Assembly (NCBI GenBank): GCA_964640155.1
Contig: CAZXEQ010000001.1
Coordinates: 1-32,000 of the forward strand
Origin: an uncultured bacterium
GTDB lineage: Bacteria; Auribacterota; JACPWU01
Direction: 5' to 3'
DNA: 32,000 nt
The position numbers and the translations under genes were made by a program. Positions 1 through 23,600 of the stretch are shown here, one piece after another (within the stretch, counting starts at the first letter, position 1; every line of letters starts with the position of its first letter). The notes beneath the pieces were generated by a model. That model saw only the letters and a list, made by a program, of their open reading frames with translations, did not search any database and was not told the origin of the DNA.

Positions 1-138
1 ACTCTTGCAGTATCAGAAGGAACATCTGGTCTCACCGGTACATCTGGAGAAATTACTACATCCCCCATAGGAACATCAGGAGTAACTGCATCCACTCTTG
101 CAGTATCAGAAGGAACATCTGGTCTCACCGGTACATCT
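1..138 (-). repeat. 93-bp (31-codon) in-frame tandem repeat inside PD linker c
   Basis: Positions 1-45 and 94-138 are identical (actcttgcagtatcagaaggaacatctggtctcaccggtacatct), encoding PDVPVRPDVPSDTAR twice. The array may continue beyond the left edge. Confidence 0.85.
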
Positions 139-323
139 ACAGATGGCATTCCCCTATCATCTACAGGTAAAATATCCGGAATTTTAGGCGTGTCTAAAGG
201 AACAGGCACATCATCTGATGGCATTCCAGTCTCTGTTATATCGGGAAGAACTACAGCTTTGTCAGCAACTCCCGAGGAATCATCAGCACTTGCATCCGCA
301 TCCTGGTGATAATCACCATAAAA
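1..323 (-). repeat. Asp/Pro-rich low-complexity linker (PD linker c), running off the left edge
   Basis: The sequence is FYGDYHQDADASADDSSGVADKAVVLPDITETGMPSDDVPVPLDTPKIPDILPVDDRGMPSVDVPVRPDVPSDTARVDAVTPDVPMGDVVISPDVPVRPDVPSDTAR. Confidence 0.8.
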
Positions 324-3300
324 ACATCCCACGAAAGTCAAAGTAGCTGCAATCAATAACGCCATAGCTCCTTTAGTCCTTGGAGCTATTGAAGTCATTT
401 CAGAAACAGAAACTCCTGTTATCTGACTTAATGCTCTAAATACTTCTTCCTTTCTTGACTCTACTCCTCTTACTCTTTCTCTCTCTTGGGCATTAATGCT
501 CTGCGATGTCTGTATGAATCTCATCACTGCTTTAAATTGTTCGTCTAACGATCTATCACTGTTCTCTACTAACAACTTTACAAATCCTTCTTCTCCTCCC
601 ATCTCTTCTATAAAGATTCTTCTCTCTTCTTCTGTCTTTCTCCTGAAATCATCTAGACTCCATAATATCGGTAATACTTCCCCATATGTCCCATGATCTA
701 TTGCTTCGTGTCCCATGACACTGGCTAATACGCTATTTGAATAGGGTCGCCCTGTTCTCTTATTATTTCTCAGTAAGTCATCATCTATCCCTATATATCC
801 CGGATTAATGACTCGCGCTATCGTGTCTCCATCCGAATATATTCCTATTCCTGTCTCTACATTCCTCATCCCGGGGTATTTTGCTATTACTGCTTCCCAC
901 GCTTCCCCTAATCTCTCTTCTTGGAAACCTGTGTATTTTCCTTCACTGATTCTACCCATTCCTGTTGGCTCTGATTGATAACCTACTTCTCCTATTTCTT
1001 TCTTCCCTGTACGTATCGGGGTGGGGCCTAAGCCTGTTAAATCTATTTCAAATCTTCCTCCTCCGGCTGGGTTTATATCAGAAGGTCTGACTTGATATTG
1101 TATTACTTGATACATTCTGTCTGAGCCCGCTGCCATTAATGTACTTGTCGCTATGCTTGAATTCCATGTTCCACTTCCAAATGTTCCGGGTCTAAATATA
1201 TACACTCCTCTACTATCTTGGAAAACAACACTAAATCCATTTAAAAGGGTAGGTACAAATTGGAAGTTGATCGCTGATAACCCTGTGGCATCTATCGGAG
1301 TCGCTCTGTATACACTTAAATACGCTACTGCTGTCGAGGTTCCTAAAGGAACATTTCCAGAAAATCTGTAAGCTCGACCCCCTATTGACGTAACACTTGC
1401 CGTTGCTCCGTCTAGTCCTCCAACAGATAAATACGTGCCAGGGAAAAATGTTGGTGAAGGTGCGGGGCCTGATCTCGTACTCCCACTTACACTCCTTGCT
1501 CCTGCAACACTAATAAGTAAGGGGGCAGGAGGCATAACATCTGGAACATCTTCTCCACTTGCATCTACACCTACTTCTGTAGGCGGTACATCTTCAACAT
1601 CTCTCACATCAATACTTGCATCCATTCGTACAACATCGGGACCTGCATCTGGACTAGGCATATCTACCCTAGGAATATCCATAGGAGTTACATCTGCGTC
1701 AGGTCGTGGAACATCCATTGAAACCGGTACGTCTTCAGGCCTTGCGTCCATGGGAACATCTATGCCGACATCCGGCCGTGCATCCGGACCGCGGTCAACA
1801 GGAAACGGCATATCAGGAGAAATTATATCTGGGGTTGCATCAGGACTACCTGCATCTAAAACATCTGTTGGCAAAACTACATCAACAGCTGCATCTGTTA
1901 CATCGGCACCAGCATCTGCTCTGGGCACAGCTGTCGGATGAGAAAGTCCACAGCTTACACCTATGAAAACTGCTAATATAGCAACAACCCCCATCACCCG
2001 GTTTGATACGCCACCTAATGTTCTCCAAAAAAGATTGGGACGTCCTATTTTAAAAATAGTTTTTGTTAATCTATTTTGTAGCTCATTCAACCCCTCTTGT
2101 AACCCCTTAAACGGGCTACCTTTTTTGAATGTAGAAATTTGTTTAAAGAAATTTCCAATTCCTCCGATGAGAAGCGTTAACCACGTCCCTCCAATACTTG
2201 CTTGACTAACCGGCCTCCTCAAATTTTTAGCAACGATATCGATTACTAAATTAGGGGCTGAAACTGCTTGCCCTCCTGTTATCTGACTTAATGCTCTAAA
2301 TACTTCTTCCTTCCTTGACTCTACTCCTCTTACTCTTTCTCTCTCTTGGTCATTAATGCTCTGCGATGCCTCAATAAATCTCATCACTGCTTCAAATTGT
2401 TCGTCCAACGATCTTTCACTGTTCTCTACTAACAACTTTACAAATCCCTCTTCTTCTCCCATCTCTTCCACAAACACTCTTTTCTCTTCAGCAGTCTTAC
2501 GCCTAAAATCATCTAGACTCCATAATATCGGCAATACTTCTCCATATGTCCCATGATCTATTGCTTCATGTCCCATGACACTGGCTATCACACTATTTGA
2601 ATACGGCCGACCTGTTCTTCTATTATCTTTTAATAAGTCATCATCTATTCCTATATATCCCAGATTAATGACTCGGGCAATCGTGTCTCCATCCGAATAT
2701 ATTCCTATTCCTGTATCTACATTCCTCATCCCTGGGTATTTTTCTATTACTTCTGCCCACGCTGCCCCTAATCTCCCTTCCTGGAAACCTGTGTATTTTC
2801 CTTCCCTGATTCTCCCCATTCCTGTTGGCTCTGATTGATAACCTGCTCCTACTTTTATCTTCCCTGTTCGTATCGGAGTTGGACCGCCAGAAACTAATCC
2901 ATTGATATCTAATTCGAATCTGCCTCCTCCAGATGGATTTACATCCGCACCACTGATTTGAATTTGTATCACCTGGAATCTTCCTGACAAACCTGCTGTT
3001 CTCCATCCTGATCCCATCACAGTTGTTGGATTTGTTCCGTACAATAAAAAATTCCAAGCACCACTTCCAAACACACCAGGAATAAATAAACCCACTTGAC
3101 CTCGATTATCTCTTAAAAATGCACGAAAGCTATCGACAAATGTTGCATAAAATCGAACATTCATGACATCACCAGTCAGTCCAGTCGCATCCATTCCAGT
3201 TGGTGACAATGCACTTAAATAAGCTACTGAATTTCCATCGCCTACTACTACCGTTCCTTCAAATCGATACGTATTTGGCCCAATCCAACGAGATGTTCTT

Positions 3301-6300
3301 ACGATTGCCCCGCCTACTCCAGCTGGTGTAAAATAGCTGTTTGAAAAATATGTTGGCATACGAAGACCACTGACTGTTTGTCCTTCAAGTCTTAGAGCTA
3401 CAGTTACAGGAATAAGCTCAGGAGCAGGAGGTGCAACATCTACTCTTGTATCTTGTGGAACATCCACCCTAACTTCTGGACCTCTATCAGTTGCAACATC
3501 TAATGCTGCATCTGGTGGCACTGGAACATCTGGTGATCTTAAAGCATCTATCGGTGTTGCTACATCCGGTGAATATGAATCCATGCTCGTTGTATCAGTG
3601 AAAACTCCTGCATCAGTAGTAGTGGCATCTATAGCTGCTACATCAGAAACTGGCGCATCAACACCTTCATCAACTGTAGGTATGTCACCACTCACGACCT
3701 CTATCGGAGCAGAGGCATCGACAACGGAAATATCTGCTGGGGGCATAGCATCTGGGATTGCTGGCATATCAACTGGCAGGCGTACATCTGATGCCGATTG
3801 ATCTACAAAAGCATCAGAAACTCCTGCGTCCGGAGTTTGCGTACGAACATGACATAAGCTCATTAAATCAAAGGAAAAACGACCTGAATCAAGAACATTT
3901 TGCGCAGGAATTTGAATTTGTATGGTTCTAAACTGCCCACTTCCTCCAGAATCTCTCACCATTCCCATGGAAAGCTCCTGAGTCCACACTCCTTCCGTCA
4001 AAGGTAAAGTCGTAGAATGATAATATCTAGAATCTCCTTTAGAACGTCTCTCAAAATCCTCTAACGCTAAAAATAAATCTCTCAGCCCAGTCTGACGAAA
4101 ACGGATATTCATTTGATCGCCCGGTAGACTTCTAGCATCCATAGGCATATCTCCCATGGAAATCGTTATATAAACTCCCGCTCCGGAAGAAATTCCCGCA
4201 TCTTGCGAAACTGGCATTTGTCCTTCTACGCGATAATGATCACCTTCTGAAATAAGTCTAGCTCTTGCACCTCCTAGCGTGGTAATTCTCACACTTGTAC
4301 CAGGAAAATAAGTAGCCGGAGTCTCTTGCCTTCTAGAAGTTTGTCCAGTTAGAGGTGATGTTCCTCTAATAGGAATAGGAGGTGGTCCATCAGTAACTTC
4401 TTCTAATCCAGAATCGGAAACTGCAGCCTCGGCATCCACACCAGTTTCTGCAGCAACACCTTCCTCACGCAAAGGCCCAAAACATCCCACAAAAGTCAAA
4501 GTAGCTGCAATCAATAACGCCATAGCTCCTTTAGTCCTTGGAGATATTGAAGTCACTGCAGAAACAGAAACTCCTGTAATCTGACTTAATGCTCTAAATA
4601 CTTCTGCCTTCCTTGACTCTACTCCTCTTACTCTTTCTCTCTCTTGCTCATTAATGCTCTGCGAGGTCTGTATGAATCTCATCACTGCTTTAAATTGTTC
4701 GTCCAACGATCTTTCACTGTTCTCTACTAACAACTTTACAAATCCTTCTTCTGATCCCATCTCTTCTATAAAGATTCTTCTCTCTTCTTCTGTCTTTCTA
4801 CTGAAATCATCTAGACTCCATAATATCGGTAATACTTCCCCATATGTCCCATGATCTATTGCTTCGTGTCCCATGACACTGGCTAATACGCTATTTGAAT
4901 AGGGTCGCCCTGTTCTCTTATTATTTCTCAGTAAGTCATCATCTATCCCTATATATCCCGGATTAATGACTCGCGCTATCGTGTCTCCATCCGAATATAT
5001 TCCTATTCCTGTCTCTACATTCCTCATCCCGGGGTATTTTGCTATTACTGCTTCCCACGCTTCCCCTAATCTCTCTTCTTGGAAACCTGTGTATTTTCCT
5101 TCACTGATTCTACCCATTCCTGTTGGCTCTGATTGATAACCTACTTCTCCTATTTCTTTCTTCCCTGTACGTATCGGGGTGGGGCCTAAGCCTGTTAAAT
5201 CTATTTCAAATCTTCCTCCTCCGGCTGGGTTTATATCAGAAGGTCTGACTTGATATTGTATTACTTGATACATTCTGTCTGAGCCCGCTGCCATTAATGT
5301 ACTTGTCGCTATGCTTGAATTCCATGTTCCACTTCCAAATGTTCCAGGTCTAAATACATACACTCCTCTACTGTCTTGGAAAACAACACTAAATCCATTT
5401 AATAGGGTAGGTACAAATTGGAAGTTGATCGCTGATAATCCTGTGGCATCTATGGGAGTTGCTCTATATACACTTAAATATGCTACTGCTGTCGAGGTTC
5501 CTAAAGGAACCATTCCAGAAAATCTGTATGCTCTACCCCCTATTGACGTAACACTTGCTGTTGCTCCGTCTAATCCTCCAGCAACCAAATATGCCCCTGA
5601 AAAAAAAGTCGGTGATGTAGCTGTTCCTGATGTCGTACTCCCACTTATACTCCTTGCTCCTGCAACGCTGATCAATGCCGGTGCTATGGGTGGTATAGCC
5701 AAAGCATCTATCTGTAAAGCAACACTTACAGTTGGACTTGTCCCACTTGTGACTTGATCTCCTCCCACTTGAACTTCAATCTGAGCTATATTTGAGGCGC
5801 TAAATCCAGAGGGTAAACTTGAAACTAATATTTCCCCACGACCAAACATACCAGGGGTTACCGTCACAGGAGCAACTCCCGTAACAATTCGTCCAGAACC
5901 ATCTTGTAATTGATAGGTTACTCTTGCAACATTGGTAACATTACCAATACCAATATGAAGTTGACCAGTCACCGCTGTGCCTGTTGTAAAATTTCTTGCT
6001 GCACCCGCTGGAATCCTATAAACCGTAATCATTTTGGATCCGGCCATTCCTCGAGTCACTGTTCCACTTGCATTCCATACAAGTCTTGATGTAGTAACAC
6101 CCGATACGGATGAAGCTGATCTTGATAAGGGTGCTGTACTCCAAGAACCTATTCCTGAGCCCCCTCCGTATCCAACTGTTTCTACAGTCACACCCGGTCT
6201 AAAATCAATTGGACCATCTACAACATTCGTAACGGGAAAGGTAGGTGAAGCTAAAGGTAAATCTGCGACAGTCAATGCCTTGGGTCCACTCAATGCTACT

Positions 6301-9300
6301 TCTACTAGCCCACTTCCATCTGGGATGTGTCGTCCCTCTATGACTCTGATAAGTCTAAATGTATTGGCATTGATTAGGGCAGGTACTTCAGATGCTGGCC
6401 TTCCCATCGCTGCTGCAAGTCGATTGATTAATTCCATTCGGTCTACTACAGGCACTCCCCACATCGTTGCTCGGCCATTTGTTACTTCTACAGTCGCTTG
6501 ATAGGTCGCTCCTCCAACCACTAACTCTGCCTTTAATGTATATCCATTTAGATTTCCTCGTGTGTCCCTTAATCCCGAGCTCCATGTGCTGTCACTTAAA
6601 AATGCCGTCTTTCCTGCTGCGCTGAGTTCACTTGAGAAGCCTGCAAATGCTCCTCCACTGACTCCCGTGTATCTGAGTCTCCTTGTGTACATCACTGTTC
6701 CATGTGCTTCTCTATCTGTGACAACATTCTCTGCTACGGTTACAACTCCCATTGTTCCAAATGCACTCTCCGTTGTGACTCCATAAAAGTCTTCTGTTCC
6801 ATCTGCACTTGCTGTCACTCGTAATGGATTGCTTGCGTTAAAGTCTGTGATGGTTAATGCCTTGGGTCCACTCAATGCTACTTCTACTGTCCCACTTCCA
6901 TCTGTGATGTGTCTTCCCTCTATAACTCTAATAAGTCTAAATGTATTGGCATTGATTAATGCAGGCACTTCAGCTGGTGTTCTTCCCATCGCGGCTGCGA
7001 GTCGGTTTATTAATTCCATTCGGTCTACTACCGGTACTCCCCACATCGTTGCTCTTCCATTTGTTACTTCTACTGTCGCTTGATACGTCGCTGTCCCTAT
7101 CACTAATTCTGCCTTTAACGTATATCCATTCAGATTTCCACGTGTGTCTCTTAACCCCGATGTCCATGTGCTGTCTGCTAAAAACGCTGTCTTTCCTGCT
7201 GCGTTGAGTTCACTTGAAAAGCCTGCAAATGCTCCTCCCATGACTCCCGTGTATCTTAATCTTCGGGTGTACATCACAGGTCCATGTGCCTCTCGATCTG
7301 TGACTACATTCTCTGCGACTGTTACAACTCCCGTTGTCCCAAATGCACTCTCGGTCGTGACTCCATAAAAGTCTTCTGTTCCATCTGCACTTGCTGTCAC
7401 TCGTAATGGATTGCTTGCATTAAAATCTGTGATGGTTAGTCTCTTCGCTCCTATTAAGGCCACTCTCACTTCTGTTCCACTAGTTAATTGGCTTCCAGCT
7501 ACTTTCCTCTGAAGCCTAAACACTCCAATTCGTATCATCCCTTCTAATGTTGTTCGATCTACTCCCGTTGCCAAAGCCAATCTTTGCAGTAACATATTTC
7601 TATCAACTGGCGCAAAACCTACAGCATTCATTCCTACTCTTCTTGGAATATCTATCTGAGCTTGTCTTGTACGTAATACTCCCATAGCATCGCGATATTC
7701 TAATTCAGCCTGTAACGTATATCCTCTTAAGTTTCCCGTTAAATCATTAATTCCTGAGACCCAAGTTGAGTCTGCCAAAAATGCTGTTTTACCTGCATCA
7801 TCCAACTCTTCACTATAACCAAATGACAATCCACCCGTAACTCCTGTCGCAACAAGCCGTCTTACGTATTGTTCACCACTACTCATCACGCCTTCAGCTC
7901 TCGCATCAATGACTGAATCTGTGACTGTCACTGCACTTGAAGAAAACACACCTGAGGTTCTTACTCCATAATAATCTATTTCTCCACTAGCGCTTTCCAT
8001 ACCTCGAAGTGTATTGCTTGCATAAAAATCTGAAATAGTTAGACGTTTAGGTCCGCTCATTCCAACATCTACAATATCGCTGCCATCTGTAATATGACGT
8101 CCTTCAATCACTCTCATGAGTCTGAAAGGATTATTTCTAATTAAACCCTCTACTTCTGAAACAGATCTTCCCATTCTTGCAGCAAGTTGAGTAATTAATT
8201 CCATCCGATTCACGACGGGCACTCCCCACATCGTCCCTCTCATATTAGAAACTTCAACATCTGCTTGATACTTCATACCGCCAATCTCTAATTCAGCTCT
8301 CAATGTATATCCACTGAGATTCCCTCGTCTATCCTTTAACCCTGATGTCCACTGTGCATCTGATAAAAATGCTGCCTTACCTTCAGCATTTAATTCAGTT
8401 AAAAATGCAGCATATCTATTTCTTGATACTCCTGAATATCGTACTTGCCTTGTATACATTTCTGTTCCATGAGGATCTCGATCTGTAACAATATTTTCCT
8501 CTACTGTTACCAAAGGTCGTCCAGTTGAAACATCCACTGTTCCAAAAGCATTTTCTGACTCTACACCATAAAAATCATCTACACCGTCCGCACTTGCATT
8601 CACTCGGATAGTTGTATCCACCATTAATTTTGACATATAGACCACACCATGAGCGCTGGACCCTCCAGCTGATTCCGCAACAGCACCAATATTTCTCACA
8701 TCTTCCCACCGTACAGGTGATTGTCCTGAAGGAACAGGGAAAACCCGTCTTAAATCTTCTTCACGAATTTCAATTCTATTTGAACTATTGGGAGTTGTGT
8801 TAGCTTGCAGTTCTATTCTGAATTTTCCAATTCTTCCATCTCTTAATGTAATCTGAAAATAAATTATCTGAGCTGTATCTGTTTTAACATACCGACGAAG
8901 AACACCTCCTGAAGCGGTGACGGCCCTTCTAATATTTTGAGCAGTCATTTCTGCAGTTCCCTCAAGAGATTGTCCTACCGCAGCGTATTCTCCACCATTC
9001 AAAGTCCAATCCCACTGAATACTTGCGCCATCTGCTACACGTATCGGTTCTGCGTTTGCATCAATATTGGTAACGACAACATCAGAGCTGGATGTCCGCG
9101 TTGGATTTCCAAGGCCAGCAATCTGGGTTGGTGCAGGACCCGTTCCATTATCTTGTTGAACAGTTAAAGAAACAACATTTGCAGTTTGTGTAGATTTAAT
9201 TCCTACTACTCTCATTCGTCCTCTTCTAGCGCGAAAAGAAGGATGATTACTGGGTTCTTCTAAAGTCAATTCAGAAGCAGCTGTTACAAGGTCTCGTCCA

Positions 9301-12300
9301 CGCTCATCCACTAACTGATTTCTTGGAAGACGCACTCGGTACCACGAGTTAGGACGTAACCCTCGCATTAGAAAATGTTTTGTGGTTGTTTGACCAGAAG
9401 CATCAAAACGCGCATTAAAATTGACTCTCATATTGACAGGTTCGCTGCTTCCAGGGGTCATAACTTCTCCACGTGCATTGAGAACTTCATTAATGCCTTC
9501 CAAAAACACCCAGAACACAACGTCATTACCTGTTACCATAAGATCATTTGAAATATTGCGTCCCGCAGCGTTTACTGCCGTAAAAGGGAAAGCCATAACC
9601 GCATATTCTGGCATGTTTTGAGTATTACCATTACGATCTAAATCCCATGTATACCCAATAGCTCTCTCACCAGATCTACGTCCTTCTACAGGAGTTGGTG
9701 ATACCACACTCAATACAAGGCCACTTCCTCCTGTCGCAGAAGTTGCTGAAAGCGCATTCGTCACAAAAGTTGGCATGCCTTCTGCGGTTTGAGTAACTTC
9801 AGCATCTACGGCTAATAAAGAAGGCGGAACACCACATGCCTCCATCAAGATTGCTCCCGCAAGACCTATAGGGGCTGCAACAGATTTAAGCAACATACCT
9901 AAAGCAAAAATGACTGAAATAAATCGACTTCCAAGAAGACCGGAATAATGACGAATCGTTGCAACTCTTTCTCTTAACCTGCGTTCATAGTTAATTGAGG
10001 CACTTGGTCTTCTTGGTTCAAGACCTTTATCTTGTAGTCTTTGAATTAAACGGAAAAAAGTTTGTTCTGTAACTTCCCCTCGCTGACCTCTCACACGAAC
10101 GTCAGATTTATCTTTAAAAGAAACAATAACTTCATAATCATTTCTGTTCGCAGCAGGAATAAATTGAATTTGGTCAATCGTTCGATAAAACTCAGGATAT
10201 TCGTTCCTTAATACTTGATGAAGTCGAGACAACCTGGCTTCTTCATCCAAAAATAGTGGTGGAGCTTGTCCTACAAAAACACTCAACTCTTGTAATAATT
10301 GAGTCCGTGCGGCGTCTCCTAAGTTTAAACCTTTGTCTTCTAGAGCCTCTAAGATAACTCCCCAAAATTGACTGGTAATTAAACCCCCTTCTCTATCCAC
10401 TCCAAGATTTTTAAACACTGTTGTTCCATCAGAAAGACGAATTTGGACGACCCCAACTTCATTCGAACCTGCTCTTACACCATCAGGAAATAAACCATAG
10501 TTTGTAATACGCAAATAAAAAGCAGGATCATTTGCTCGAATGCTGTCTATCACTCTCTGAAGCGCAACAATAACATCATCCCCTTTTTGACCTTGAGATA
10601 AACCAGCTCCAGCCACAGAAGATGAAGATCTAGAGAAAAAATAATCATCAGCAACTACCCTTTCTAAATTAGATCTTTGACGATGTGCAGCTTCATTTTC
10701 CTGCCTTCTATGTTCTCTAGCAAAGTGAATGAACCCTGCGAATAAACCAATGCTCGCCAAAACTATTACAATAATGGCTGCCCATCGACTTGTTCCAGAA
10801 GGCGGACGTATGGATTGAGCAATTAAAGATTTTAACTCTCTTACTCTTTGAGCGAGTTTTCTTTCATAAAGTTCTTCATTTTTATTTATATCTTCCGGTG
10901 TTTTTGTGGGGCCAAAACGAACGTGTTTTACAAGTTCATCTAACTGACGATCCATACCATCTTGTGTCATGCGTCTAGCTTCAACTTCTATTCTTAATCT
11001 TGCTTTTTCTGCTTCATAATCTTTCACCGACCCCACTGCAATAGCACCTAATTTCAATTGCTTACCTTCGCTATTGGGTGCCGTAGCCTGAATCAAAGCC
11101 CATTCAAACTTGACCACAGGAACATAAATCGTTTTTCCATTTCTGAAATAGGTTTGTACCTTAACGCTGACAATAGGATCAATCTTGCTTTTGGCTTGAG
11201 CAGCCTTTTGAGCTAACTCTTCTTGAACCTCTTTCGTTTTTCCTTCTCTACGCAGCTTAAGAAGTTTTTGAACATCGTCCTCACTTAAACCTACGTATCT
11301 AGCGATGGCAGGAATATCTTGAAAAAAAGTATTCGTATTCATCCAAGGCACAGTTGCAGAGTTCACATCTGATGGAAGTTGTGGATCTTCTACTCCTACT
11401 AATGTCCCATTTTGTGCTAAAAGAGATCCACCTTTTTGACCTTCAGGTCGAGAAGCAACCTCCATGACAGACTCAACACCATGCTCTTTATTCATCTCCA
11501 CAAAAATCCCTAACATCACCCAAAAATCTTCGTCAATATTCGAAACAGCATTATCCACATTCATAACATAAACAAATTTTCTATCCTGTTCAAGAAGGTC
11601 TAGCAAAGTACCACTACGAACAAGATCTGCAATCCAGTCAAAATGATTCTGAACATAAGTAATAGGTTTGCCTTCCGGATCTCTTGCTGTTTCAGCAGGA
11701 TGGGCATTTGCATAAGCTAAAATTTGTTCATATTGATCAATAGTGTCTTGAAGAGTTCGACGCCCATCATCGCTCAAAGATTCTCCACCTTCAAGTCGAG
11801 CACGTGCCTTTTTTGCATCTTTCGCATAAGAACTATTTTCAATATCTGCAACAGTTGGAACACCTGCTTGCGCACCTCCTTGAGTGAATAAGCGAAGTTC
11901 TTCTGGACTCCATCCAAAATTTCCATGACGAGCTAAATAATCTCTCGCAGGTTCATCGGTATTCGGTCCAGTCATTAAAAGAGGAAGAAGACCACTGTCT
12001 CTCTCTCCCATCACTTGCATCAAAAACAGTTCAAGAAAGGTATAGGCTCTTCCATCAATGACAATAGCTGGCACTTGAGCTTTTGCAATAATTTTAGAAA
12101 GGTCTTCACGGTCTGTTTCAGGAAGAGCATCAAAAAGGGGTTTAAAACGCGGATCCGCACGCATGGCCTGTACTTTCATACGTGAAGCATCTCCACCAAC
12201 CATCATGGCTGCTACAGCCTCTTTGGAATGAGCACGACCCAGAGCTTCATAGCGTGCACGATCTTCTGAAGATAATGTGCGAATATCTTTAATAAGAGAA

Positions 12301-14506: not shown

Positions 14507-14560
14507 TTATTTGAATAAGTTATATCATCATCAGCCACTAAAAAAGCTTTTAACATACAT

Positions 14561-14605: not shown

Positions 14606-17600
14606 TTAAGCTGCAGTTCCTATCCACGCTTCTCTTCTTATCTCACCATCCATATCGCTTCGATCTGAAACAAGATTTAAGCTACTCTTCCTATATATAC
14701 CCAACCGTAAGACATCCCCCTCTTTTACAACTTTAACCACGCTACCATCTTCAAGTCGAGCAATATCCACTCCCTTTTCCAAATCAGCAATCGACCTTGT
14801 AAGAATCATTTCCAGAGCAACTTCAAAATACTGAACAGAAATATTTCCGGCTCCAACAAAATCAATATAGAAACAATGAGATATTTGACGAAGATCTTTA
14901 ACTATTTCAGCCACATCTGAACTTAATTTCAAAGTTTTACCTGCAACCTGAATCTTCCCATTCTTTTGAAGCAATATAATGCGAGATATTGTCTTTCTCA
15001 CAAGTTGATGAAGCGGTTTTGATATCTTAGCATCTTGATTCATTCCTTCCAAAATAGTCAATCCATCTTGCGTACGCCCAGATTTCAAATTTTTAATAGC
15101 TTCGAAATAGGGATCGATTGATACTAACCCGCTTGTCTGTAATTCTCTTGCCGGATGAACTTCATCAAAATAAGAAATGAGTTCAACCAAAGGCATGTTT
15201 CCCATTAATCCATCAACTGTTTCATCCACTCCAAAAATGATTTGTGCTAAATCTTCAGAGCTAAAAGATTTCCCTCTCATAAAAGAAGCCATTTGAAGCA
15301 GTCCGCCTAAAACACCTTGTTCCATTGCAAGTGTTGCTTCCTCATTGTGGTGATATTCTTCTGAGCGAGCTCTTTTTCGTCTTTTTTCCTCTGCCGCTCT
15401 TACTTCAACAATCTTTCTCACTTTTTCACGTAAATCATTTAATGTCATCTCATCTGATTGAAGAGATTTAATGGTTTTTTGAATCAAATCCGCAAGAGTG
15501 CGATTATCTTCCAATCCCAATTCATCTCTATTTAAAAAATGTGCAATGCTTGTTTGCAAAAGATCCGCAATTTCATTTTCAGTAATTTCCTGTAAAAACT
15601 CTGGGACAGCTTTAACAATGCTGCTCACTAATTTTTGAGTTTGATTCTGTCTCTGTGCTTGAGCCAAACGTAATCCCAAGATATAGCGTCTAAATCTCTT
15701 AAAATTAGCCAATCTGACTCTTTCTTTAGCTACACCTCTAACATTCGAAGGGTAAAGTTCACCAACATATTCAGAGATTGTTGGTCTTCCCTTTGATATT
15801 TCTTCAGAATCAGTAGCTAGAAATTGAATCCAAACAAAATAAGTTCCCGAAGCAAAACGAGGATGTTTGCCAGTGATGTGATCAGAAAAATAAGCGTCAA
15901 TCTTAGTCTTCAAAGCTGCATTTATAAGAACCACTTCTTTCTGATATTCCACATCTCTTTTAATTTGAGTCACTTCTTCTTCCTTCTTATCATCGAAAGA
16001 GTCTGCTTTATTTGTATGGCCCAATTCATGAAAAAGTCGTTCACCCAAAAGATGAATCACCACATCATGATAAGTACTATCATCCTCAAGTAGTTGACGA
16101 ACAAAAGCTTCCTGTAAATAAATGACTGTTTGACCTTTTTCAACAGTACGTAAAGAATTCACAGGAATATTATTTGAAACTTTAATCACCACATTTTGAT
16201 TTTCAGCTCGTGAAATGACGTCATTCCAATAACTTTCTAAAGAAGTCCCCTTCACTCTTTCCTGAACATTCTTTAAAGCTTGTTCAATGAGTAAAGCATA
16301 ATGTGCTCGTCCTCTATTATCGGGAACAGCATTCCATGCAGTTTTTGAACGATTCAAAGTAACTCTATCAAAAACAACTTCTTCTATTCTTTGAGGCCAT
16401 TCGAAATTAGTTTCAGAAAAAGTTAGAAAAAGAGCTGAATACTCTGCCTCATAAATGGATATTATTTCTCCTAGTGGTTTAAGATCATCATTATAAGTGT
16501 CTTTCCCCTTTTCACCGAGACGATTAAGCTCTGCTTCAAGTTTGTCGTACTCAGCACGAAGTGCTGGTAAAATAGCCTCAACACTTTCAGACTCGCTAAG
16601 CTGTTCCACCCGAGCCCTTAAAACTTCAATGTCTCCACTTATTGCATCTAAACTTCTTATAGGAGTTTCTGCAGCAGAAGACATGTCTGCAGGCGTAGCA
16701 GCTTCTGAAGCTGGTTCATCGTCGTCTTCCAGATCAGCTGAAGTTAAGTCTGCTGGTTCAGCTGCTTCAGGTTCTGGAGGAGGAGAATCTCTTCTTTCCG
16801 GTGCGGCGGGTTCTTCAGGCAGTGGTTTATCTGTTATGTTGATAGCAGCATCCCTGACAACAGGTGTAGCAGGAGCTGGTCTTTCTGCAGAGAGAGCTTG
16901 AGGCGTTGGCACTGGTTCAGGGGATTCAGGTTCAGGGCTCAACTCTTTAAGACGTTTTCTAAAAAGTTCTCGACGATTTTGAATCTCTTCTAAACCTTCT
17001 CGAATGGCTCGTTGTAAATCTTGAACTCTCGTTTGACCACTCCAATCAGAAAAAATATCTCTTAAAGCATCCCTTGCTCCTGTAAAAAGCTCTTCAGCTT
17101 TAGCCAATGATCCAAAAGACTCTGTAATGTCATCCTCTGATGCATCTTCAGGCTTTACAAGATATAAAAGAATTTTTTGAGCAGCATCAACCGGTTCAAC
17201 AACATTCTTTTTAAACAAAGCTTCTTGTGCATCTTCTGGGGTTGGAGAAGATCTTGGAGTTGCTTCTGTTTGAGTTTCTGTTTTTGCCCCACCCAAATCC
17301 GCTCCTGTGACAGTTTCTACTGAAGCTCCAACTCCTGATATTGAAACATCTCCTAAAGGAGCTTTAGGTTCCGCGGGTGCCTCAGGTTCTGAAGCAGGTT
17401 TAACTTTTGCAAGACGAGCCTCCCACCTTGATCGAAGGTCCTTGATAACACCAAATCTTGCTTGAATAATAGCCCTTGCACTTTCAGCCCAAGCCCTATC
17501 AACCAATTTCATTTGTTCACCTTCATGCTGAACATCAGCAAAAACAGCTAAAACATCTTTACCTTCTGGAATTGCCTCTAACGCTGTTTCTAAATGAGCT

Positions 17601-20600
17601 TGTGCTACATCCAATCGACTAAGAGCTCTTCCAACCTTCTCTTCATCAGCACTTTTAATAGGGTTATCCGATCTATCAAAAATTCTCCTCTCTGCATTAT
17701 TAATAAGAGTAACCACCCGTTCTTTTAACTTTTCTTCAGCTGTTTTCTCTGCAGGTTTTTCAGCTTTAACGCCTGATTTTGCTTCTGAAGATACACCTCC
17801 ACCCCCAGGAATAGAAGGAGCAACTGGAGGAACAACACCCGGCTGCTTTACAGGAGGAGTAGCTTCAGGAATATCAATACCTAAGTCTTTTAAAAACTGA
17901 ATATCTTTAGCCACAAAACCAAGATCTTTTAAAATTTCTTGCCTTCTTTCATTTTCTAAATTTTCCCAGAATTCATCACTTCTCTTAAAACAAAAATTCC
18001 AGACATGATAAGCAACATAAAGTACTCCCATATACTTAAGAGGTGTAAGAATTGAAGCTCCCGCATAGACTAAAGCTCCTTTTATTCCGAAAGAAGCAGC
18101 CCAACCATACAGGAACATCACTAAAGAAACTATCCATGCACCCTCTTTAACAATTTTCCAATTTGCCCATAAATTTTCTTTATTTTCTCCTAGGATATTT
18201 CTCTCTAAGTACTCTTTGAAAAACATTCTTCTAGGCGATTTTTTATCTTTATCAAAAACTTTATAATACGAAGCTGCTGGATCTCCCAATGATGAGAAAA
18301 ATCTTTTTGCTATTTTGAATCGAAGTTTCCATCGATCCGATAGAGAAAACGTGGTTGCCAAAGGATCTTTCCAAAATCGTGTATGTGTGTCTCGATACAT
18401 TACTCTTTCCGCCAGATCTTCTAATTTTTGGCGTTGTTCTTTACTCTTTTTATATCGTGTTCCATTCCACCACCAAGCAAACTTATATTTCAACTCAGCA
18501 TAATGACGCCAAGTAAAAAATTCAGGGATCAGCTGTTTACGTTGAGTTTCTAATTGCATCCAAGTCCATTCAACCAATCTGTCCTGAAACCAAGGAGAAA
18601 AACCATACATTTTACAGAGGGATCTAACCCATGCACGCAAATGTTCTTCTTCAAATGTTATTCCCTCAAATTGACCCAACAATTTTTTAACATCTTCTTC
18701 TTTAAGTCGAGGAATCTTAGCCCCCGGTGTCGCTTTCTCCCATTTATCTCTTAATGTATTTAAACGCTCAGTCAATTGCGTCAAATGAGAAGGCTGAATT
18801 TCTTCAAAAGCAAGGACTCGTAAAACTTCTTTGATTTCCTGACGAGCTAAAAGATACGGTTTGTCCAAATAAAGACGCAAAGTATCACGCTCATCCAAAT
18901 CAAATTGTTTGGCAACTTTTTTAACGCGTGTCTTAAAACCCTCTATCGTCTTTATTTGCTCAGATACACTCCCGTTAGTCGAGGACGCGTTTACTTTAAC
19001 TTCTTCATCTTCTTCAGAAAGAGTTGCTTCTTTATAATTAAAAATATTTTCGGCTAACCTTTCTTCGGGGAGAATTAAAGGCTTATGAAACTCTCTAGAA
19101 CGACCCTGATAGGTCGTCCACCAAACTGCCAAAGGACCAATCAGCCAGGAAAGAATGACCGGATAAGCCATTGCAAAAAGACTGAAGGGAATAATACCTG
19201 CAACAGTTAATCCAATAATGATCAAAGCCGGAATCACTGTTTTCATAAACATTTTGAAAATATTTATCTTACTCACCACAATTTCTCCAAAGAAATTATT
19301 AACCTCAGGGCCTGGCGTCCAGACCAACACCCCTTTATTAAAATAAAGTTCAGCAACTTGAATAATCATGATCGATAAAACCCAAAGGTTTAGTAAGAGG
19401 GTTAGCGTACTCCAAAAAACCAATCCAATACCTGATTTAATAATTTGTAAAATATCTCGACCCAATTTTGTGAAACTTAAGAATAAAATAATGGGAATAA
19501 TATAGGGAACAGATGCGATTAAAAAAGCCCATGGAGAAACAAGCAAAAATGTTGAACCAGACCCGAAGACAAGACCATTTAAAATAATTAATAAATGAGC
19601 TATCTTAGGACCTAGAATGGGTAGTAATTTTACACTCGCACCGGCAAAAGCAATAGCAGATTTCATGACAATTCCCCATTTACCAATAAATAAACTACCC
19701 ACTGCCAAACCTGCCCCGATAGACCCTAAAAACGTCACTGTATTGCGTATTCCTTTCCACCAAAACTCTTTCCTCGTTCTTGAGGGTTCTTTCCAAATGC
19801 GAATTGCAATAGGACGAATCACATAAGTCACACCTAAAAGCATTAAAAATACCACTGTATAAAGCCAATTGGATAAAACAGCTCTTGAAAGTTCTCGCGT
19901 CCCGGGGGTAACAGCACTGATCGCAGATGCCCCTGTCCAAAGAAGGAAAAGAGGATCATTAACAATTCCCTGAAGGTTAAACCAAGTCACCAAATGTCCA
20001 ATCCTCGGCTCATGCTCTTCTTTAATAATTGCCTCGGCTGCCTTTTTGACACCCCCTGGTTTCCACACCCCTTCCGCAAGATTTTTAGAAACCTTCCAAA
20101 GTGGATTCACAATTTCTTGAATCAGAAAATCTCCAAATCTCCATCTCACAATTCTAGCTAACATGAATAAGAAACTTGCGGGAGCATCTTCTGCATATCT
20201 TCCCAAATATTGCCAACTGTTAATAATTAAAGTCGCCTTACCTCCAACGCCTTCTGTGTGATCATGACTTAACTGATTCGCACGCGTAAAAGTTTTGATG
20301 ATAATATTGTTGATCGCTCTATGAATGCTCCAACTCCCTTTTCCAAAAGAGGTAAATAAAGGTTTCCCATTTCTCTTAAAAATGCGAGCAACAATTTCAA
20401 CGGTGCTAAACAAACGTTCCCCTGCTGTTTGCTGTCCTGTTGCAAAGGTGTTTTCCCCTTTGTTTAAGTTAACAATGGTAGGAACAAAAAGAGTAAAATT
20501 GTTTCCTAATTCTTGCTCTGCAGCCATGACAGAAGAAAGATAAACATGTGTGCCAGGCAAATAAGTATCTCCCCCGTCCATTTGATGAGCAAACTGAACA

Positions 20601-23600
20601 CATCGATCTGGTTCTACTTGTTCATCTAATAAATCTACAATTTTATTTCCATCCGAATCATAGAGATAGAAAAGTCCACTTCCCGGCTGACCTTCTTTCC
20701 CCATCAGAATGTCTTGTGAACGATGTAAAATCTCAAAGAGATCTCGCTTCAGTTTTGAGTCTTTAACGCCATTCAAATCTAATTCTGAAGCCTTGTTTAA
20801 ACCCTTAAATTTTTCTGTCAATTCACCTTTTACATTAATGTATTTTGCATCTATCAAAGCTTGCCATAAAGAATCAAGATTCATCCCTTTTAAATCCAAA
20901 TAAGCTAAATCGGTTTTCTTAACTCTTTTAGCATCCCTTGTAATAAGGCGAGTACTCTCATCCTCTTTACTTTTTAATGCTCCAAAATCATTTTTGGCTG
21001 CTACTCTGATCCACTTTTGAACCCATTGCCCATCTTTTTGAATGACTGTTCTATAGGCTAAACCTCCGACCTCAACATTGTCAAAAATATCTCCCCTTGC
21101 TTGTGCTTCTGCTAACTCTGTTTGAGTAAAAACATGAAAACCATCTTTTTCATTTACCAAAAAACCATGTTGTACTGTATCACCTACTTTTTTCTTCACG
21201 ACGACTCGGCCTGGAAACTCCTTATCTTCCCATGCAGCCATTTCTTCAGGCTTAATATTGATAAAATAATGCGTCTCATCTCCTGTTTTTCCTCGATGCA
21301 AATGATAAGAGGCCCCGTAATCTCCTTGTTGACCAATTCGTTGAATTCTTATTTTGGCAAACATGCTAAGAAAGTGATCTCGTTGATCGTTAGGAGAGAG
21401 ACTAGAAAAATCTTTTATTTCTAAAACAGCGTCTAGGACTTCTTCAAGCTCTTGCGCTGAAATATGATTATATAAATGCTTACTCCAAATATTTCTTAGA
21501 GCCTCTTGAATATTACTGACTTCTTTTATTTCATCTGCAAAAGCTTTTTCTGTTAATAACTTTCCCCATTCTGCTTTAAAATGGGTAGCTGCTTTCTGTA
21601 AAGCATCTTGCTCTACTTTAATCATCTGAATCAAAGGATCTTGCCGTCTAAGATCAGCTCCATCAAATTCACCTCGAACATAGGTATTACCATCTGACAC
21701 TAGTTTCCCTTGAGATGCCCATTGCAAAATTCTAAAAATTTCATCTTTATGCTCTTCAAATTCACGAGTATTAAATTTAGAATCGTTGAATTTTATATCA
21801 GCAGGTTTTTTTAAGACCTTAAAGCTCTTTTGAACGATCCCATTTTCTAAATAACCACTTTTTGTTAAATCAATCAAAAGCTCTTTAATATCCTGATCGT
21901 CCAATCCCATTGATTCAAAATTATCTTTAGTAAGAACAATTTCTTCCACCAAGAAAAATCCCTTGCCACTGCTGACATTCCATTTCCCAGCTGTTTTTTT
22001 GTCTTCTTTAAAGATTAATGTCCCTTTTTCATCAATGAGAACACACTTCCCCTCTCCAGCATCTTTGACAGGTTTAGAAATTTTTTTCAAATCATCTCTC
22101 GTTGCAACTCTAAAAGGTCCGATTTTTCTTCTATTGTTTTTATTCGTTTCATCTTCCTTATCAAGGTAAACAACAAAAAATCCAGGGGGATTTTTGAGAT
22201 TTCCAGCATCATCCTTTTCTATTTCTAAAATAAATTCACGCGGGGCAAGTGTATCAATGATAATTTTTCCACCTTCTTTCCACTCTTCACATTCATATTT
22301 TCCTTTAATAATAGGAACTTCCATGTATTTAACAACATCACCTGAAGGTGATATAAAATCCCCTTCGGCCAAATGTCTTCCATTTTCTGTTTCTTTGTAT
22401 TCATTGACACTGACAACCTTATAACTAAGCTTTCCTTCTTTTTCGTGAGCTTGAAAAGTCTGATCTAAAATCCGAACTTTTTCTTTTACACGTGTTACGT
22501 TTCGTCTTTCTCCTTCACCTTCAATTTTATATAAATCGTAAATAAATCCTAAACTATGCGCACCTTTTCTAGAGAAGATAGCACCCTTCTTACCATTTGT
22601 TAGAAATGCATGATCCTCTAAAAATCTCGTATTCCCTTCGAAATCAATGTAAAGTTTATAGTCATTGCCATTCTCATCCTTAAAGGTTAACCGATCGATC
22701 GTATCTTCTTGTCCCATGACAAAAGACGCATCTTTATCAAGATCCTTTAAAACCTTTAAAGGTTCCCCTGTATTAAAATCGATGAGTTTTCCATTTTTAA
22801 ATTCAAAATCTAAAGTTGAAGCAATTTTATCTCCTCGGGTTACCCGACCATCTTGTAAGTTAACTGGATAAAGCTCCCCTTCTAAAATTTCATAACTGGG
22901 CGTCTTTTCTCCATCTTTATAGAGATACCAATGATTTTCGAAATGAACATCATCATTGATCACTTTGCCATTTACTTTTAAGACTCTTCTTTCTCTCAAA
23001 CCATATCGATTGAGAGGATCAAATTTTAAAAGCTCACATTTGCGACCATGAACATCAAAGGTAACGCCTTCAAGTTTCTCTCTCTTGTCCAAAACATCGG
23101 CGGTATAACAAGTAGGATGTTCATGCTTAAGTTGCATCAATAGGAAATCATCATACATAGATCCCCATTTTTTACCAAAACGAACCTTATCTTCAGGAAC
23201 CTCTGCATTTTTTCGATTCCGATGTTCCCAAATCACACGATCATCACCAACTTTATCCATAAATTCTTCGATCAAAGCCAATTCAGATCCAACTACATTA
23301 TTGTCAGGAGATTGATTGAAGATGACCAATTTTTGATGATCGCGAGGGTCTGGTATTTCAAGATTTTCTCCATCCTGCAAAGCCAGGATTCTTGTTCTTA
23401 ACCTACGATTAATCGAAAAAAGAGATACATCTTCTTTTTTTGTTCCATCAGGGCAAATCATGTCAAATTTCTTTTGATCTCCATCCACGCGACAAACGAT
23501 TTGCACCTTTGAAACATTGTTCCAAAAATCCTCAAATAAAGAGTGAACTGCTTCATTAGATACTTTCACACTGTTGGGCAAATAAGGTAAATACACCATG

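Follow-up and report, generated by a model that had tools for sequence, protein, structure and literature searches.

The giant reading frame and its modules

The window analysed is the whole stretch of 32,000 nucleotides, positions 1 to 32,000 of contig CAZXEQ010000001.1 (assembly GCA_964640155.1), from an uncultured Auribacterota-like bacterium of the PVC group. On its minus strand an open frame runs without a stop from position 14519 to window position 3 (4,839 codons), and the reading frame, here called ORF A, starts at the first ATG at 14492, preceded by AAGAGG plus 8 nt, codes for more than 4,830 amino acids and runs off the left edge of the window (3..14492). An ortholog in a Ca. Auribacterota MAG (L002) is 85% identical over residues 1-1520. 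The protein begins with a Sec-type signal peptide read from the sequence (14397..14492, residues 1-32, MGQSTFKNKPLRKFISFLTAFTFLITSLPVQG|LEIDP), followed by a conserved N-terminal domain (12900..14360, residues 45-531) which is shared with giant ORFs of MAGs labelled Omnitrophota, Elusimicrobia and Chlamydiae, and comparable N-terminal signals are present in most homologues of this domain. A strongly hydrophobic segment with a basic C-flank, TM1 (10713..10784, residues 1237-1260), has a Hessa-scale sum of -2.3 and is read as a stop-transfer helix. It is followed by a start-transfer-like hydrophobic stretch (9834..9944, residues 1517-1553) ending in ...AILMEAC|GVPP, a variant lipobox with an atypical glutamate at -2, in the same position as the canonical internal lipobox IIIGC of L004, another homologue.

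The distal part of ORF A consists of repeated modules. Module M1 contains a beta domain (5181..5699, residues 2932-3104) and an alpha/beta domain with the motif HEAIDH (4563..5180, residues 3105-3310). The exported part of module M2 (2853..4481) comprises an acidic tether (3338-3369), beta domain 2a (3370-3547), an Asp/Pro/Val-rich tether (3548-3690) and beta domain 2b (3691-3880), and is followed by the M2 HExxxH domain (2223..2852, residues 3881-4090). Behind this lie an extra hydrophobic segment (2145..2201, residues 4098-4116, ASIGGTWLTLLIGGIGNFF), which is weak with a Hessa sum of +3.95 and a candidate stop-transfer, and a very basic loop (2001..2144, residues 4117-4164) predicted to be cytoplasmic. 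Module M3 (405..1949) has an Asp/Pro/Val tether (4182-4320), a beta domain (4321-4490) and an HExxxH domain (4491-4696). M1 and M3 are 92-96% identical at the DNA level over about 1.2 kb, and an Asp/Pro/Val-rich tether (3..323) precedes the window edge, beyond which the ORF continues.

The AlphaFold2 model of the M1 beta domain (pLDDT 92.7) is a predicted jelly roll resembling carbohydrate-binding modules, as a Foldseek search of the PDB retrieved CBM11 and GH11 structures with E values of 1e-4 to 4e-4 and TM scores of 0.42-0.49. The other domain had been labelled an HExxH zincin in the sequence-only reading. The motif proved to be H-E-x-x-x-H (HEAIDH at residues 3209, 3975 and 4595) and no HExxH occurs anywhere in the ORF. 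With zincin metallopeptidases the domain shares a His-Glu...His motif on a helix that follows a small beta sheet, with a conserved glutamate a few residues later, but it has no Pfam match and no PDB fold hit better than E = 0.78, so that the zincin label is unsupported. The M49/DPP III family has HExxGH, but no similarity to it was found.

Lipoprotein-signal-like segments at the module junctions

Three in-frame segments of ORF A match the lipoprotein signal pattern, M3324-C3337 (4482-4523, MALLIAATLTFVGC), M4167-C4181 (1950-1994, MGVVAILAVFIGVSC) and M4710-C4723 (324-365, MALLIAATLTFVGC). With their basic N-terminal parts they read RTKGAMALLIAATLTFVG-C3337 (segment 1, 4482..4538), RVMGVVAILAVFIGVS-C4181 (segment 2, 1950..2000) and RTKGAMALLIAATLTFVG-C4723 (segment 3, 324..380, with one synonymous difference from segment 1). 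The observation made in the sequence-only reading, that complete lipoprotein-precursor layouts recur in frame in the interior of a giant ORF, is thus confirmed with exact coordinates and sequences. Its statement that a tether, a beta domain and an HExxH domain directly follow each segment requires correction beyond the motif, as two beta domains and two tethers precede the HExxxH domain after segment 1, and only the tether is visible after segment 3 because the window ends.

All three segments match the PROSITE PS51257-type core {DERK}(6)-[LIVMFWSTAG](2)-[LIVMFYSTAGCQ]-[AGS]-C, and no other match was found in this ORF or in the neighbouring 5,780-amino-acid ORF B, together 10,600 residues. The PROSITE rule, however, requires the cysteine at residues 15-35 of the precursor, whereas here it lies thousands of residues in, and segment 2 is atypical in having glycine at -3 and serine at -1. 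The pattern is more than chance, since ORF A has only 6 cysteines in 4,830 residues and three of them sit at these sites, compared with 0.03 expected at hydrophobic permissive sites (P about 4e-6, or 3e-4 if the M3 duplicate is removed). Each segment has a charge of +2 to +4 in the 20 residues before it and a 15-residue uncharged run, followed by 7-10 acidic residues in the next 40. The segments therefore do not alternate as helices of a polytopic protein should.

Hessa-scale sums are +1 to +3.3 for most segments, which is like the N-terminal signal peptide (+4.0) and unlike TM1, although segment 2 with -0.3 is hydrophobic enough for a transmembrane helix. The M2-to-M3 junction is well formed, with a weak hydrophobic segment, a very basic loop and then the lipobox signal, and this layout of stop-transfer, basic or cytoplasmic stretch and lipobox signal is also seen in residues 1237-1553 of ORF A and in L004, and is the logic of polyproteins with internal signals. 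The M1-to-M2 junction and the junction after M3 lack any stop-transfer partner, the stretch before segment 1 scoring +7 on the Hessa scale. The sequence-only reading had argued that, if the segments were ordinary transmembrane helices, the near-identical modules M1 and M3 could end up on opposite sides of the membrane. This topology argument is correct and is sharpened by these findings.

Conservation of the junctions in homologous proteins

Among 1.84 billion protein representatives the only homologues (about 30-35% identity) were P0001, from a JGI contig, and P0002/P0003, which are the same protein assembled twice, from a 185-kb NCBI contig and from a Logan contig (L018), respectively. They carry the same internal junctions of basic stretch, hydrophobic stretch, [AG]-Cys and acidic tether. 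P0002/P0003 is a complete protein of 2,580 amino acids, identical in the two independent assemblies, with its own N-terminal signal peptide and two internal lipobox segments, each followed by an acidic tether. P0002 has 2 of its 5 cysteines at such sites (P about 9e-5), and the single cysteine of P0001 is at one. In neither P0001 nor P0003 is the signal preceded by a stop-transfer segment. All seven segments examined (three of ORF A, one of P0001, two of P0002 and that of L004) have Gly, Ala or Ser at -1 and a basic N-flank (4-5 Lys/Arg in 20 residues, 2 at segments 1 and 3), and all but that of L004 have a strongly acidic C-flank (7-10 Asp/Glu in the next 40 residues), so that they share one orientation.

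An assembly or sequencing artefact which removed stop codons or frameshifts between separate genes is not supported and very unlikely. The near-identity of M1 and M3 is a risk for short-read assembly and the window itself is absent from the public collections searched. However, 4,839 stop-free codons at 42% GC cannot arise by chance, homologous in-frame junctions occur in three other independent assemblies of distant homologues, the paralogous modules show purifying selection (dN/dS of 0.17-0.39), and a repeat collapse would delete a module rather than remove stops.

A recent in-frame fusion of tandem lipoprotein genes is likewise not supported. The junction from the HExxxH domain to the signal is shared with P0001 at about 33% identity, so the fused state is old, and the signal properties have been kept while the sequence of the h-region changed completely. 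An ancient fusion of such genes remains a plausible origin. That the segments are mere relics of it, i.e., signal peptides which no longer function, could be suggested by the stand-alone lipoprotein layout of each unit and by the SD-like motifs and start codons upstream of several segments, as old gene starts would have. It appears unlikely, as the cysteine is retained in proteins that have otherwise almost eliminated cysteine and the signal features persist despite the sequence turnover. No unfused homologue, and no stand-alone lipoprotein homologue of the module, was found among the representatives searched.

Internal translation starts are neither supported nor excluded, and seem an improbable explanation. 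SD-like motifs as strong as that of the true start precede candidate starts at 3 of 5 independent junctions. The anti-SD duplex energies are -6.3 to -6.9 kcal/mol at segments 1 and 3 of ORF A, P0001 and segment 2 of P0003, against -6.5 for the true start, and only 11% of in-frame start codons reach -6. The enrichment is only borderline (about 0.06 by a rough estimate), the purine-rich codons for Lys-Gly-Glu mimic SD sequences, the spacing is poor at segments 1 and 3 (14 nt, or 2 nt for the nearer ATG), and segment 2 and segment 1 of P0003 have no suitable start. Without stop codons each product would still run through all downstream units, so internal starts cannot by themselves give stand-alone units.

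Possible processing of the precursor

The sequence-only reading had listed four alternatives without choosing one, namely recent fusion, a polyprotein cut at internal lipoboxes or by its own zincin domains, internal starts, and sequencing or assembly errors, and it is partly supported. Of these, processing at internal lipoboxes is the best-supported reading but unproven, and we propose it only tentatively. In this view ORF A encodes a giant, Sec-exported, modular cell-surface protein, in which an N-terminal signal peptide and an anchoring region are followed by repeated modules of an acidic disordered tether, one or two CBM-like beta jelly rolls and an HExxxH domain. The short hydrophobic segments at the junctions would not be ordinary transmembrane helices but internal start-transfer signals of the lipoprotein (signal peptidase II) type, made of a basic n-region, an 11-21-residue h-region and [GAS]-Cys. 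Each would insert N-in/C-out, its cysteine would probably be diacylglyceryl-modified by Lgt, and the chain would possibly be cut before that cysteine by LspA. One translation product would become a series of lipid-anchored surface proteins, or at least a chain pinned to the membrane by lipid at each junction.

This reading is supported by the conserved cysteines in cysteine-poor proteins, the uniform N-in/C-out charge bias, the marginal hydrophobicity of the segments, which is more signal-peptide-like than transmembrane-like, the acidic disordered tethers, and the jelly roll after the tether, an extracytoplasmic type of domain. Long disordered linkers after the +1 cysteine are typical of Gram-negative lipoproteins. 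What the analysis establishes are the segments themselves, their statistical excess, their uniform charge polarity and marginal hydrophobicity, their conservation in the only homologues and the extracytoplasmic type of the beta domain, while membrane insertion in this orientation, lipidation, cleavage, and the way the upstream module crosses the membrane at junctions without a stop-transfer segment are inferences from sequence alone. If the upstream module is already outside, the N-in/C-out insertion that Lgt and LspA need is topologically unexplained at the M1-to-M2 junction, at the junction after M3, and in P0001 and P0003. In addition, the M1/M3 duplication unit ends just after the cysteine, so in that recent duplication the segment travels with the upstream module.

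A somewhat doubtful alternative is that the segments are uncleaved membrane tethers, signal-anchor-like or interfacial elements pinning one continuous giant protein to the cytoplasmic membrane at intervals, with the cysteine lipidated or not and without separate products; a tryptic peptide such as GAMALLIAATLTFVGCFGPLR would then span a junction that remains intact. Giant proteins of related phyla carry roughly one transmembrane call per 1,000 residues and are read as membrane-anchored, the M1/M3 repeat unit ends with the segment as if it were a C-terminal anchor of the upstream module, and the topology problem applies to LspA processing as well. On the other hand, the uniform N-basic/C-acidic polarity is incompatible with consecutive helices of one chain that has homologous CBM-like modules on both sides, h-regions of 11-15 residues and positive Hessa sums are poor for transmembrane helices, and the model gives no reason for the conserved [GAS]-Cys unless the cysteine is lipidated.

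The topology problem would be solved if the precursor were first cut upstream of each segment, by the adjacent HExxxH domain in cis or by another enzyme, releasing independent prolipoproteins, each with its own N-terminal signal peptide, for the normal Lgt/LspA route, analogous to alphavirus capsid self-cleavage exposing the next signal. In ORF A and P0001 an HExxxH domain sits directly upstream of the segment, joined by a roughly 15-residue linker of low predicted confidence (pLDDT below 50), and virtual precursors beginning there are textbook lipoprotein signals, for example (M)TSIAPRTKGAMALLIAATLTFVGC. This is nevertheless unlikely, as the domain is not a recognisable peptidase, neither lipobox segment of P0003 is preceded by it, the domain itself lies downstream of a signal and would be exported, and no conserved cleavage motif is visible upstream of the segments. 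Cleavage by zincin domains of the protein itself thus has no support.

Comparison with related systems

No described precedent for such a polyprotein was found. Bacterial lipoprotein signal peptides (Sec/SPII; Lgt, LspA, Lnt pathway) have the same basic n-region, short uncharged h-region, [GAS]-Cys lipobox and disordered linker after the cysteine, but they are N-terminal with the cysteine at about residues 15-35, whereas the putative signals described here recur 3,300-4,700 residues into the chain. Giant membrane-associated proteins of Omnitrophota and related PVC-group bacteria (West-Roberts et al. 2023, bioRxiv 10.1101/2023.11.21.568195; 2026 preprint 10.64898/2026.06.07.730766) are likewise multi-thousand-residue ORFs with many hydrophobic segments and CBM-like folds, for which many transmembrane calls with implausible topologies are reported and cleavage is suspected, but whether and where it occurs is left open. 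These papers do not mention lipoproteins or lipoboxes, and one of them discards internal signal-peptide calls as artefacts. ORF A, with its N-terminal domain homologous to that of giant ORFs of Omnitrophota MAGs, is smaller (more than 4.8 kaa) and has no SecA-DEAD, C39 or S8 domain by Pfam.

In flavivirus, pestivirus and alphavirus structural polyproteins, one ORF codes for successive exported domains separated by hydrophobic segments that re-initiate translocation, and the M2-to-M3 junction has the corresponding arrangement of stop-transfer, basic loop and signal. Those polyproteins are cut by signal peptidase I-type enzymes in the ER, whereas here the signals are of the lipoprotein type in a bacterium and two of the three junctions lack the stop-transfer partner. 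C-terminal sorting signals (LPXTG/sortase, PEP-CTERM/exosortase, GlyGly-CTERM/rhombosortase, MYXO-CTERM) also combine a short motif, one hydrophobic helix and a charged cluster to mark a processing and anchoring site. An NCBIfam search gave no hit, and the polarity is reversed, since those signals read motif, helix, basic tail (N-out/C-in), while the order in ORF A is basic, helix, Cys, acidic.

Open reading frames and architecture

The minus strand of the window carries two giant open frames. ORF B spans positions 14609-31999 and is open to the right edge, giving at least 5,797 codons, while ORF A is open from 14519 to position 3, which amounts to 4,839 codons, and runs off the left edge. ORF A has a credible start at the ATG at 14492, which is preceded by AAGAGG and an 8-nt spacer and lies 113 nt after the stop of ORF B. 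All residue numbers count from this ATG and agree with those of the sequence-only reading. Searches with Rfam and TRF on the window found nothing.

Self-comparison, alignments and hydrophobicity scans yielded the following order of elements in ORF A. A signal peptide (residues 1-32) is followed by a conserved N-domain (residues 45-531, positions 12900-14360), a UDPGP-like region (residues 932-1075, positions 11268-11699), a transmembrane segment termed TM1 (residues 1237-1260), an Arg-rich stretch, and a start-transfer stretch (residues 1517-1553, positions 9834-9944) ending at Cys1553. Then come a beta-rich region with four tandem repeats of about 200 amino acids (residues 1944-2772, positions 6177-8663), which are 40-83% identical to each other and have no family assignment, and module 1 (M1), consisting of a beta domain and an HExxxH domain. 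Segment 1 leads to module 2 (M2), composed of tether, beta, tether, beta and HExxxH domain, after which a weak hydrophobic segment (residues 4098-4116) and a very basic loop precede segment 2. Module 3 (M3) contains a tether, a beta domain and an HExxxH domain, and is followed by segment 3 and a tether which continues off the window.

The UDPGP-like region (UTP-glucose-1-phosphate uridylyltransferase, PF01704, E = 2e-10) is the only finding of Pfam in ORF A, and it lies between the N-terminal signal peptide and TM1, that is on the predicted exported side, which is an odd location for a nucleotide-dependent enzyme fold. In ORF B Pfam found nothing. ORF B has dense polytopic transmembrane clusters at about residues 2390-2760 and 4020-4275, one HELGH motif at residue 5307, and no lipobox-like sites.

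Lipoprotein-signal-like segments

The three hydrophobic segments described by the sequence-only reading are exactly where it had placed them, and its observation of lipoprotein-precursor layouts in the interior of the frame is confirmed, and strengthened by statistics and comparative evidence. Segment 1 (MALLIAATLTFVG-C3337) lies at 4482-4523, segment 2 (MGVVAILAVFIGVS-C4181) at 1950-1994, and segment 3 (MALLIAATLTFVG-C4723) at 324-365. A regular expression for the PROSITE PS51257-type lipobox core, an uncharged run followed by [LIVMF...]-[AGS]-Cys, matched at these three cysteines and nowhere else in the 10,600 residues of ORFs A and B. ORF A has only 6 Cys in 4,830 residues, three of which are these. 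Counting the sites which are permissive for the pattern and hydrophobic gives 0.03 expected against 3 observed, corresponding to a P of about 4e-6, or 3e-4 after removal of the near-duplicate M3. A fourth cysteine, Cys1553, also terminates a hydrophobic stretch (...AILMEAC|GVPP), where the Glu at -2 makes a non-canonical lipobox, and this is possibly a fourth lipidation or cleavage site.

Each of the three segments is preceded by 2-4 Lys/Arg within 20 residues, has a 15-residue uncharged run, and is followed by 7-10 Asp/Glu in the next 40 residues. In the test for a basic n-region immediately before a 7-22-residue uncharged h-region, 2-5 Lys/Arg were counted in the preceding 20 residues and the h-regions measured 11-21 residues. 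The tethers consist of 17-21% Asp, 13-17% Pro and 16-17% Val. In contrast to bacterial lipoprotein signal peptides, where the Cys is found at about positions 15-35 of the precursor, the Cys residues here are at 3337, 4181 and 4723 of an uninterrupted frame, and the positional rule would be fulfilled only for hypothetical internal starts or after upstream cleavage. On the Hessa scale, applied in a position-independent manner and therefore a crude measure rather than a full predictor, the sums were +1.2 for segment 1, -0.3 for segment 2, +0.95 for segment 3, and +1.2 to +3.3 for the segments of homologues, compared to -2.3 for TM1 and +4.0 for the protein's own N-terminal signal peptide. The criterion for an alpha-helical transmembrane segment was about 19 or more residues hydrophobic enough for insertion.

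Two details of the sequence-only reading need correction. The motif it had given as HExxH is H-E-x-x-x-H, occurring three times as HEAIDH, and no HExxH is present anywhere in ORF A. It had also described a tether, a beta domain and an HExxH domain after each segment, but after segment 3 only a tether is visible before the window ends.

Domains of the repeated modules

The beta domain is predicted to fold with high confidence (pLDDT 92.7). The model resembles the jelly rolls of CBM11 and GH11 in a Foldseek search of the PDB (E 1e-4 to 4e-4, probability 1.0, TM 0.42-0.49), which is an extracytoplasmic, glycan-binding type of domain, although the resemblance is at the level of the fold only and ligand binding would be an inference from it. 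The model of the HExxxH domain is reasonably good (pLDDT 75, core above 90). It has no fold match in the PDB (best E = 0.78) and no sequence match in Pfam, NCBIfam or the PDB, so that neither motif nor similarity to a peptidase family supports the zincin label. The 35 residues from the end of this domain through segment 1 are predicted with a pLDDT below 50, consistent with a flexible linker plus a signal-like element. Pfam and NCBIfam found no sorting-signal family, no peptidase, and nothing for the junctions.

The paralogous modules show dN/dS of 0.17-0.39. The HExxxH domains of M1 (4563-5180) and M3 (405-1022) have a dS of about 0.03, compared to about 0.25 for their adjacent beta domains, which suggests recent gene conversion confined to the HExxxH domain and the signal segment. 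The similarity between M1 and M3 stops right after ...VGCF.

Homologous proteins

A full HMMER search of 1.84 billion protein representatives with the module alignment found only two proteins, termed P0001 and P0002, which makes the module family extremely rare in public data. P0001 is a 333-amino acid fragment from a 1-kb JGI contig, which runs from an HETTDH domain through KPKANFLNAGLFTGLLGVIATFAA-C|GAPNDT into a Gly/Asp-rich tether and a beta-rich region, and its only Cys is the lipobox Cys. P0002 (2,553 amino acids, NCBI, 185-kb contig) is the same protein as P0003 (2,580 amino acids, Logan SRR8893623, locus L018), which is complete with a stop codon and adds an N-terminal signal peptide, MDRFKRFFSCLVVCIFFLNDVVLNFA. 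This protein has the N-domain of the ORF A type (48% identity), an HELTPH domain, and two internal lipobox segments, ...VGAMLMVVAAA-C|GPAV... and ...LLRLLVACMFFAVMG-C|SSQS..., each followed by an acidic tether. Of its 5 Cys in 2,553 residues two are at lipobox +1 (P about 9e-5). Its C-terminal region is homologous to the C-terminal ~310 residues of ORF B, so parts of ORFs A and B occur in one protein elsewhere.

Three word-indexed protein searches, with module M3, with the N-domain and with a 134-amino acid core of the N-domain, returned nothing, probably because low-complexity words saturated the candidate list or the family is not indexed. An alignment of the HExxxH domain found no loci in collections of metagenome and viral contigs, and an exact 60-mer of the window is absent from the genome and metagenome contig collections searched.

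The N-domain, in contrast, found 16 genomic loci. The closest is a Candidatus Auribacterota metagenome-assembled genome (locus L002), which is 85% identical over residues 1-1520 and has an ortholog of ORF B upstream of the ORF A ortholog; its contig ends at residue 1520, before any module, which precludes a comparison of orthologous junctions. The others are giant ORFs in metagenome-assembled genomes labelled Chlamydiae, Elusimicrobia and Omnitrophota, most of them with N-terminal signal peptides. One of these, locus L004, has the layout of signal peptide, N-domain, transmembrane segment, cytoplasmic stretch, and then ...FSAIIIG-C|LGSPT, which also matches the lipobox core. This parallels residues 1-1553 of ORF A, with the canonical IIIGC at the position where ORF A has Cys1553. 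The N-domain contains the invariant motifs IQxQDxHCHFEAQSN and LLAGGFHTEG, has only a faint, non-significant resemblance to ChaN/Tiki in Pfam (E = 1.2), and may be a family marker for these giant surface proteins. Of the features of the Omnitrophota-type giant proteins ('Archaeovorin' or Dockerin types), which are divergent SecA-DEAD, C39 or S8 peptidase, or dockerin domains and a length above 30 kaa, none was seen here, Pfam finding only the UDPGP-like region in ORF A and nothing in ORF B, and only the N-domain is shared with the giant ORFs of Omnitrophota.

Membrane topology and possible processing

Four properties argue that the segments are not ordinary helices of a polytopic protein. The lipobox segments share one charge polarity, basic before and acidic after, whereas consecutive helices of one chain must alternate. 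Homologous CBM-like modules lie on both sides of the segments. The h-regions are short, and their Hessa-scale sums, as far as such a crude scale allows, resemble the N-terminal signal peptide rather than TM1, with segment 2 at -0.3 outside the range of +1 to +3.3. Finally, [GAS]-Cys is retained at the C-terminal edge in proteins almost devoid of Cys, and this holds across about 30-35% identity with complete turnover of the h-region sequence. These are the properties of lipoprotein (SPII) signal peptides. In addition, the M2-to-M3 junction, residues 1237-1553 of ORF A, and L004 show a stop-transfer element paired with a basic or cytoplasmic stretch and then the signal, a pairing which lets polyproteins with internal signals keep successive domains on the same side of the membrane.

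We therefore favour, though only tentatively, internal lipoprotein-type start-transfer signals which would be lipidated by Lgt and probably cut by LspA, resulting in several lipid-anchored surface modules, each hanging on a long acidic tether. While the segments, their statistical excess, their flanking charges and their recurrence in homologues were observed directly in the sequences, diacylglyceryl modification, cleavage before the Cys and the binding of carbohydrate by the modules are inferred. The mechanism, lipidation with or without cleavage at internal lipoboxes, is plausible but unproven, and it carries a genuine topological puzzle. At the M1-to-M2 junction, the junction after M3, the junction of P0001 and both junctions of P0003 nothing upstream can act as a stop-transfer. 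If the upstream module is exported through the N-terminal or preceding signal, the basic n-region should not be able to stay in the cytoplasm. Cleavage upstream of the signal before export, engagement of a second translocon by the internal signal, or interfacial insertion from the periplasmic side might each offer a way out, and this puzzle is the main reason for our reserve towards the full mechanism. A helical hairpin formed with the stretch upstream of segment 1 was considered and rejected, as this stretch has a Hessa sum of +7 and alternates V/S like a strand or linker. C-terminal sorting signals were rejected because the polarity is wrong, 2A-like peptide-bond skipping because there is no NPGP-type motif at the junctions, and an alternative genetic code because reading with table 11 can only add stops, not remove them.

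The alternatives listed by the sequence-only reading were partly supported, the favoured one being its polyprotein cut at internal lipoboxes. Its assembly or sequencing error is very unlikely, since four independent assemblies have open junctions, the modules are under purifying selection, and 4,839 stop-free codons cannot arise by chance. A recent fusion is contradicted by the junction shared with P0001, but an ancient fusion of tandem lipoprotein genes remains a reasonable origin. Internal initiation cannot be excluded. Hypothetical starts at GTG3313 or ATG4699 would give (M)TSI[S/A]PRTKGAMALLIAATLTFVGC, a textbook 24-residue lipoprotein signal, and ATG114 of P0001, which lies 30 codons before the Cys, and TTG1233 of P0003 are similar. 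Their anti-SD duplex energies are -6.3 to -6.9 kcal/mol, like that of the true start (-6.5), and only 11% of in-frame start codons reach -6. Against this, the spacing is 14 nt at segments 1 and 3, two junctions have no candidate, the enrichment is borderline, and without stop codons such products would still contain all downstream units. At 366-410 and 4524-4565 an AAGGAG motif lies 2 nt before the ATG of MALLIAA..., and an AGGAG lies 14 nt before the in-frame ATG (segment 3) or GTG (segment 1), which may be relics of former gene starts or weak internal initiation sites.

Relation to other giant proteins

Lipoprotein signals are textbook N-terminal features. Full-text searches for internal or additional lipoboxes, and for polyproteins or internal signal peptides linked to signal peptidase II, Lgt and LspA, gave no relevant paper, and within the literature searched the feature is undescribed. 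Two papers on giant Omnitrophota and PVC proteins report numerous transmembrane predictions with implausible localisations and an ambiguous membrane topology, suspect cleavage by C39 or S8 domains, and state that the cleavage points are unknown. The word lipoprotein does not occur in either of them, and one pipeline explicitly downgrades internal signal-peptide calls as chunking artefacts, even deleting them.

If the junctions are processed they would give concrete cleavage and lipidation sites, would imply that Lgt and LspA can act on internal signals, and would suggest a way for small-genome bacteria to deliver stoichiometric sets of surface lipoproteins from one gene. The most far-reaching form of this view, which is not excluded but appears doubtful, is that the internal lipoboxes are genuine Lgt/LspA processing sites and the giant ORF is a Sec-pathway polyprotein, lipidated and cut at each module junction into a set of lipoproteins. 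This would be a bacterial counterpart of viral polyproteins with internal signal peptides and a general answer to where giant PVC/Omnitrophota proteins are cleaved. If the segments are not cleaved, they still define an unusual class of same-polarity, Cys-terminated membrane tethers which current topology rules do not explain.

Other giant ORFs with the same N-domain contain isolated internal segments which look like signals of the signal peptidase I type, for example ...RRLFGFGVLVMALSVIAPGIAGAAQ|EGAS. They were seen at residues 742-764 and 1207-1227 of L009, 652-671 of L016, 1704-1723 of L008, and 1802-1821 of L003, and internal signal-like elements may be widespread in these proteins.
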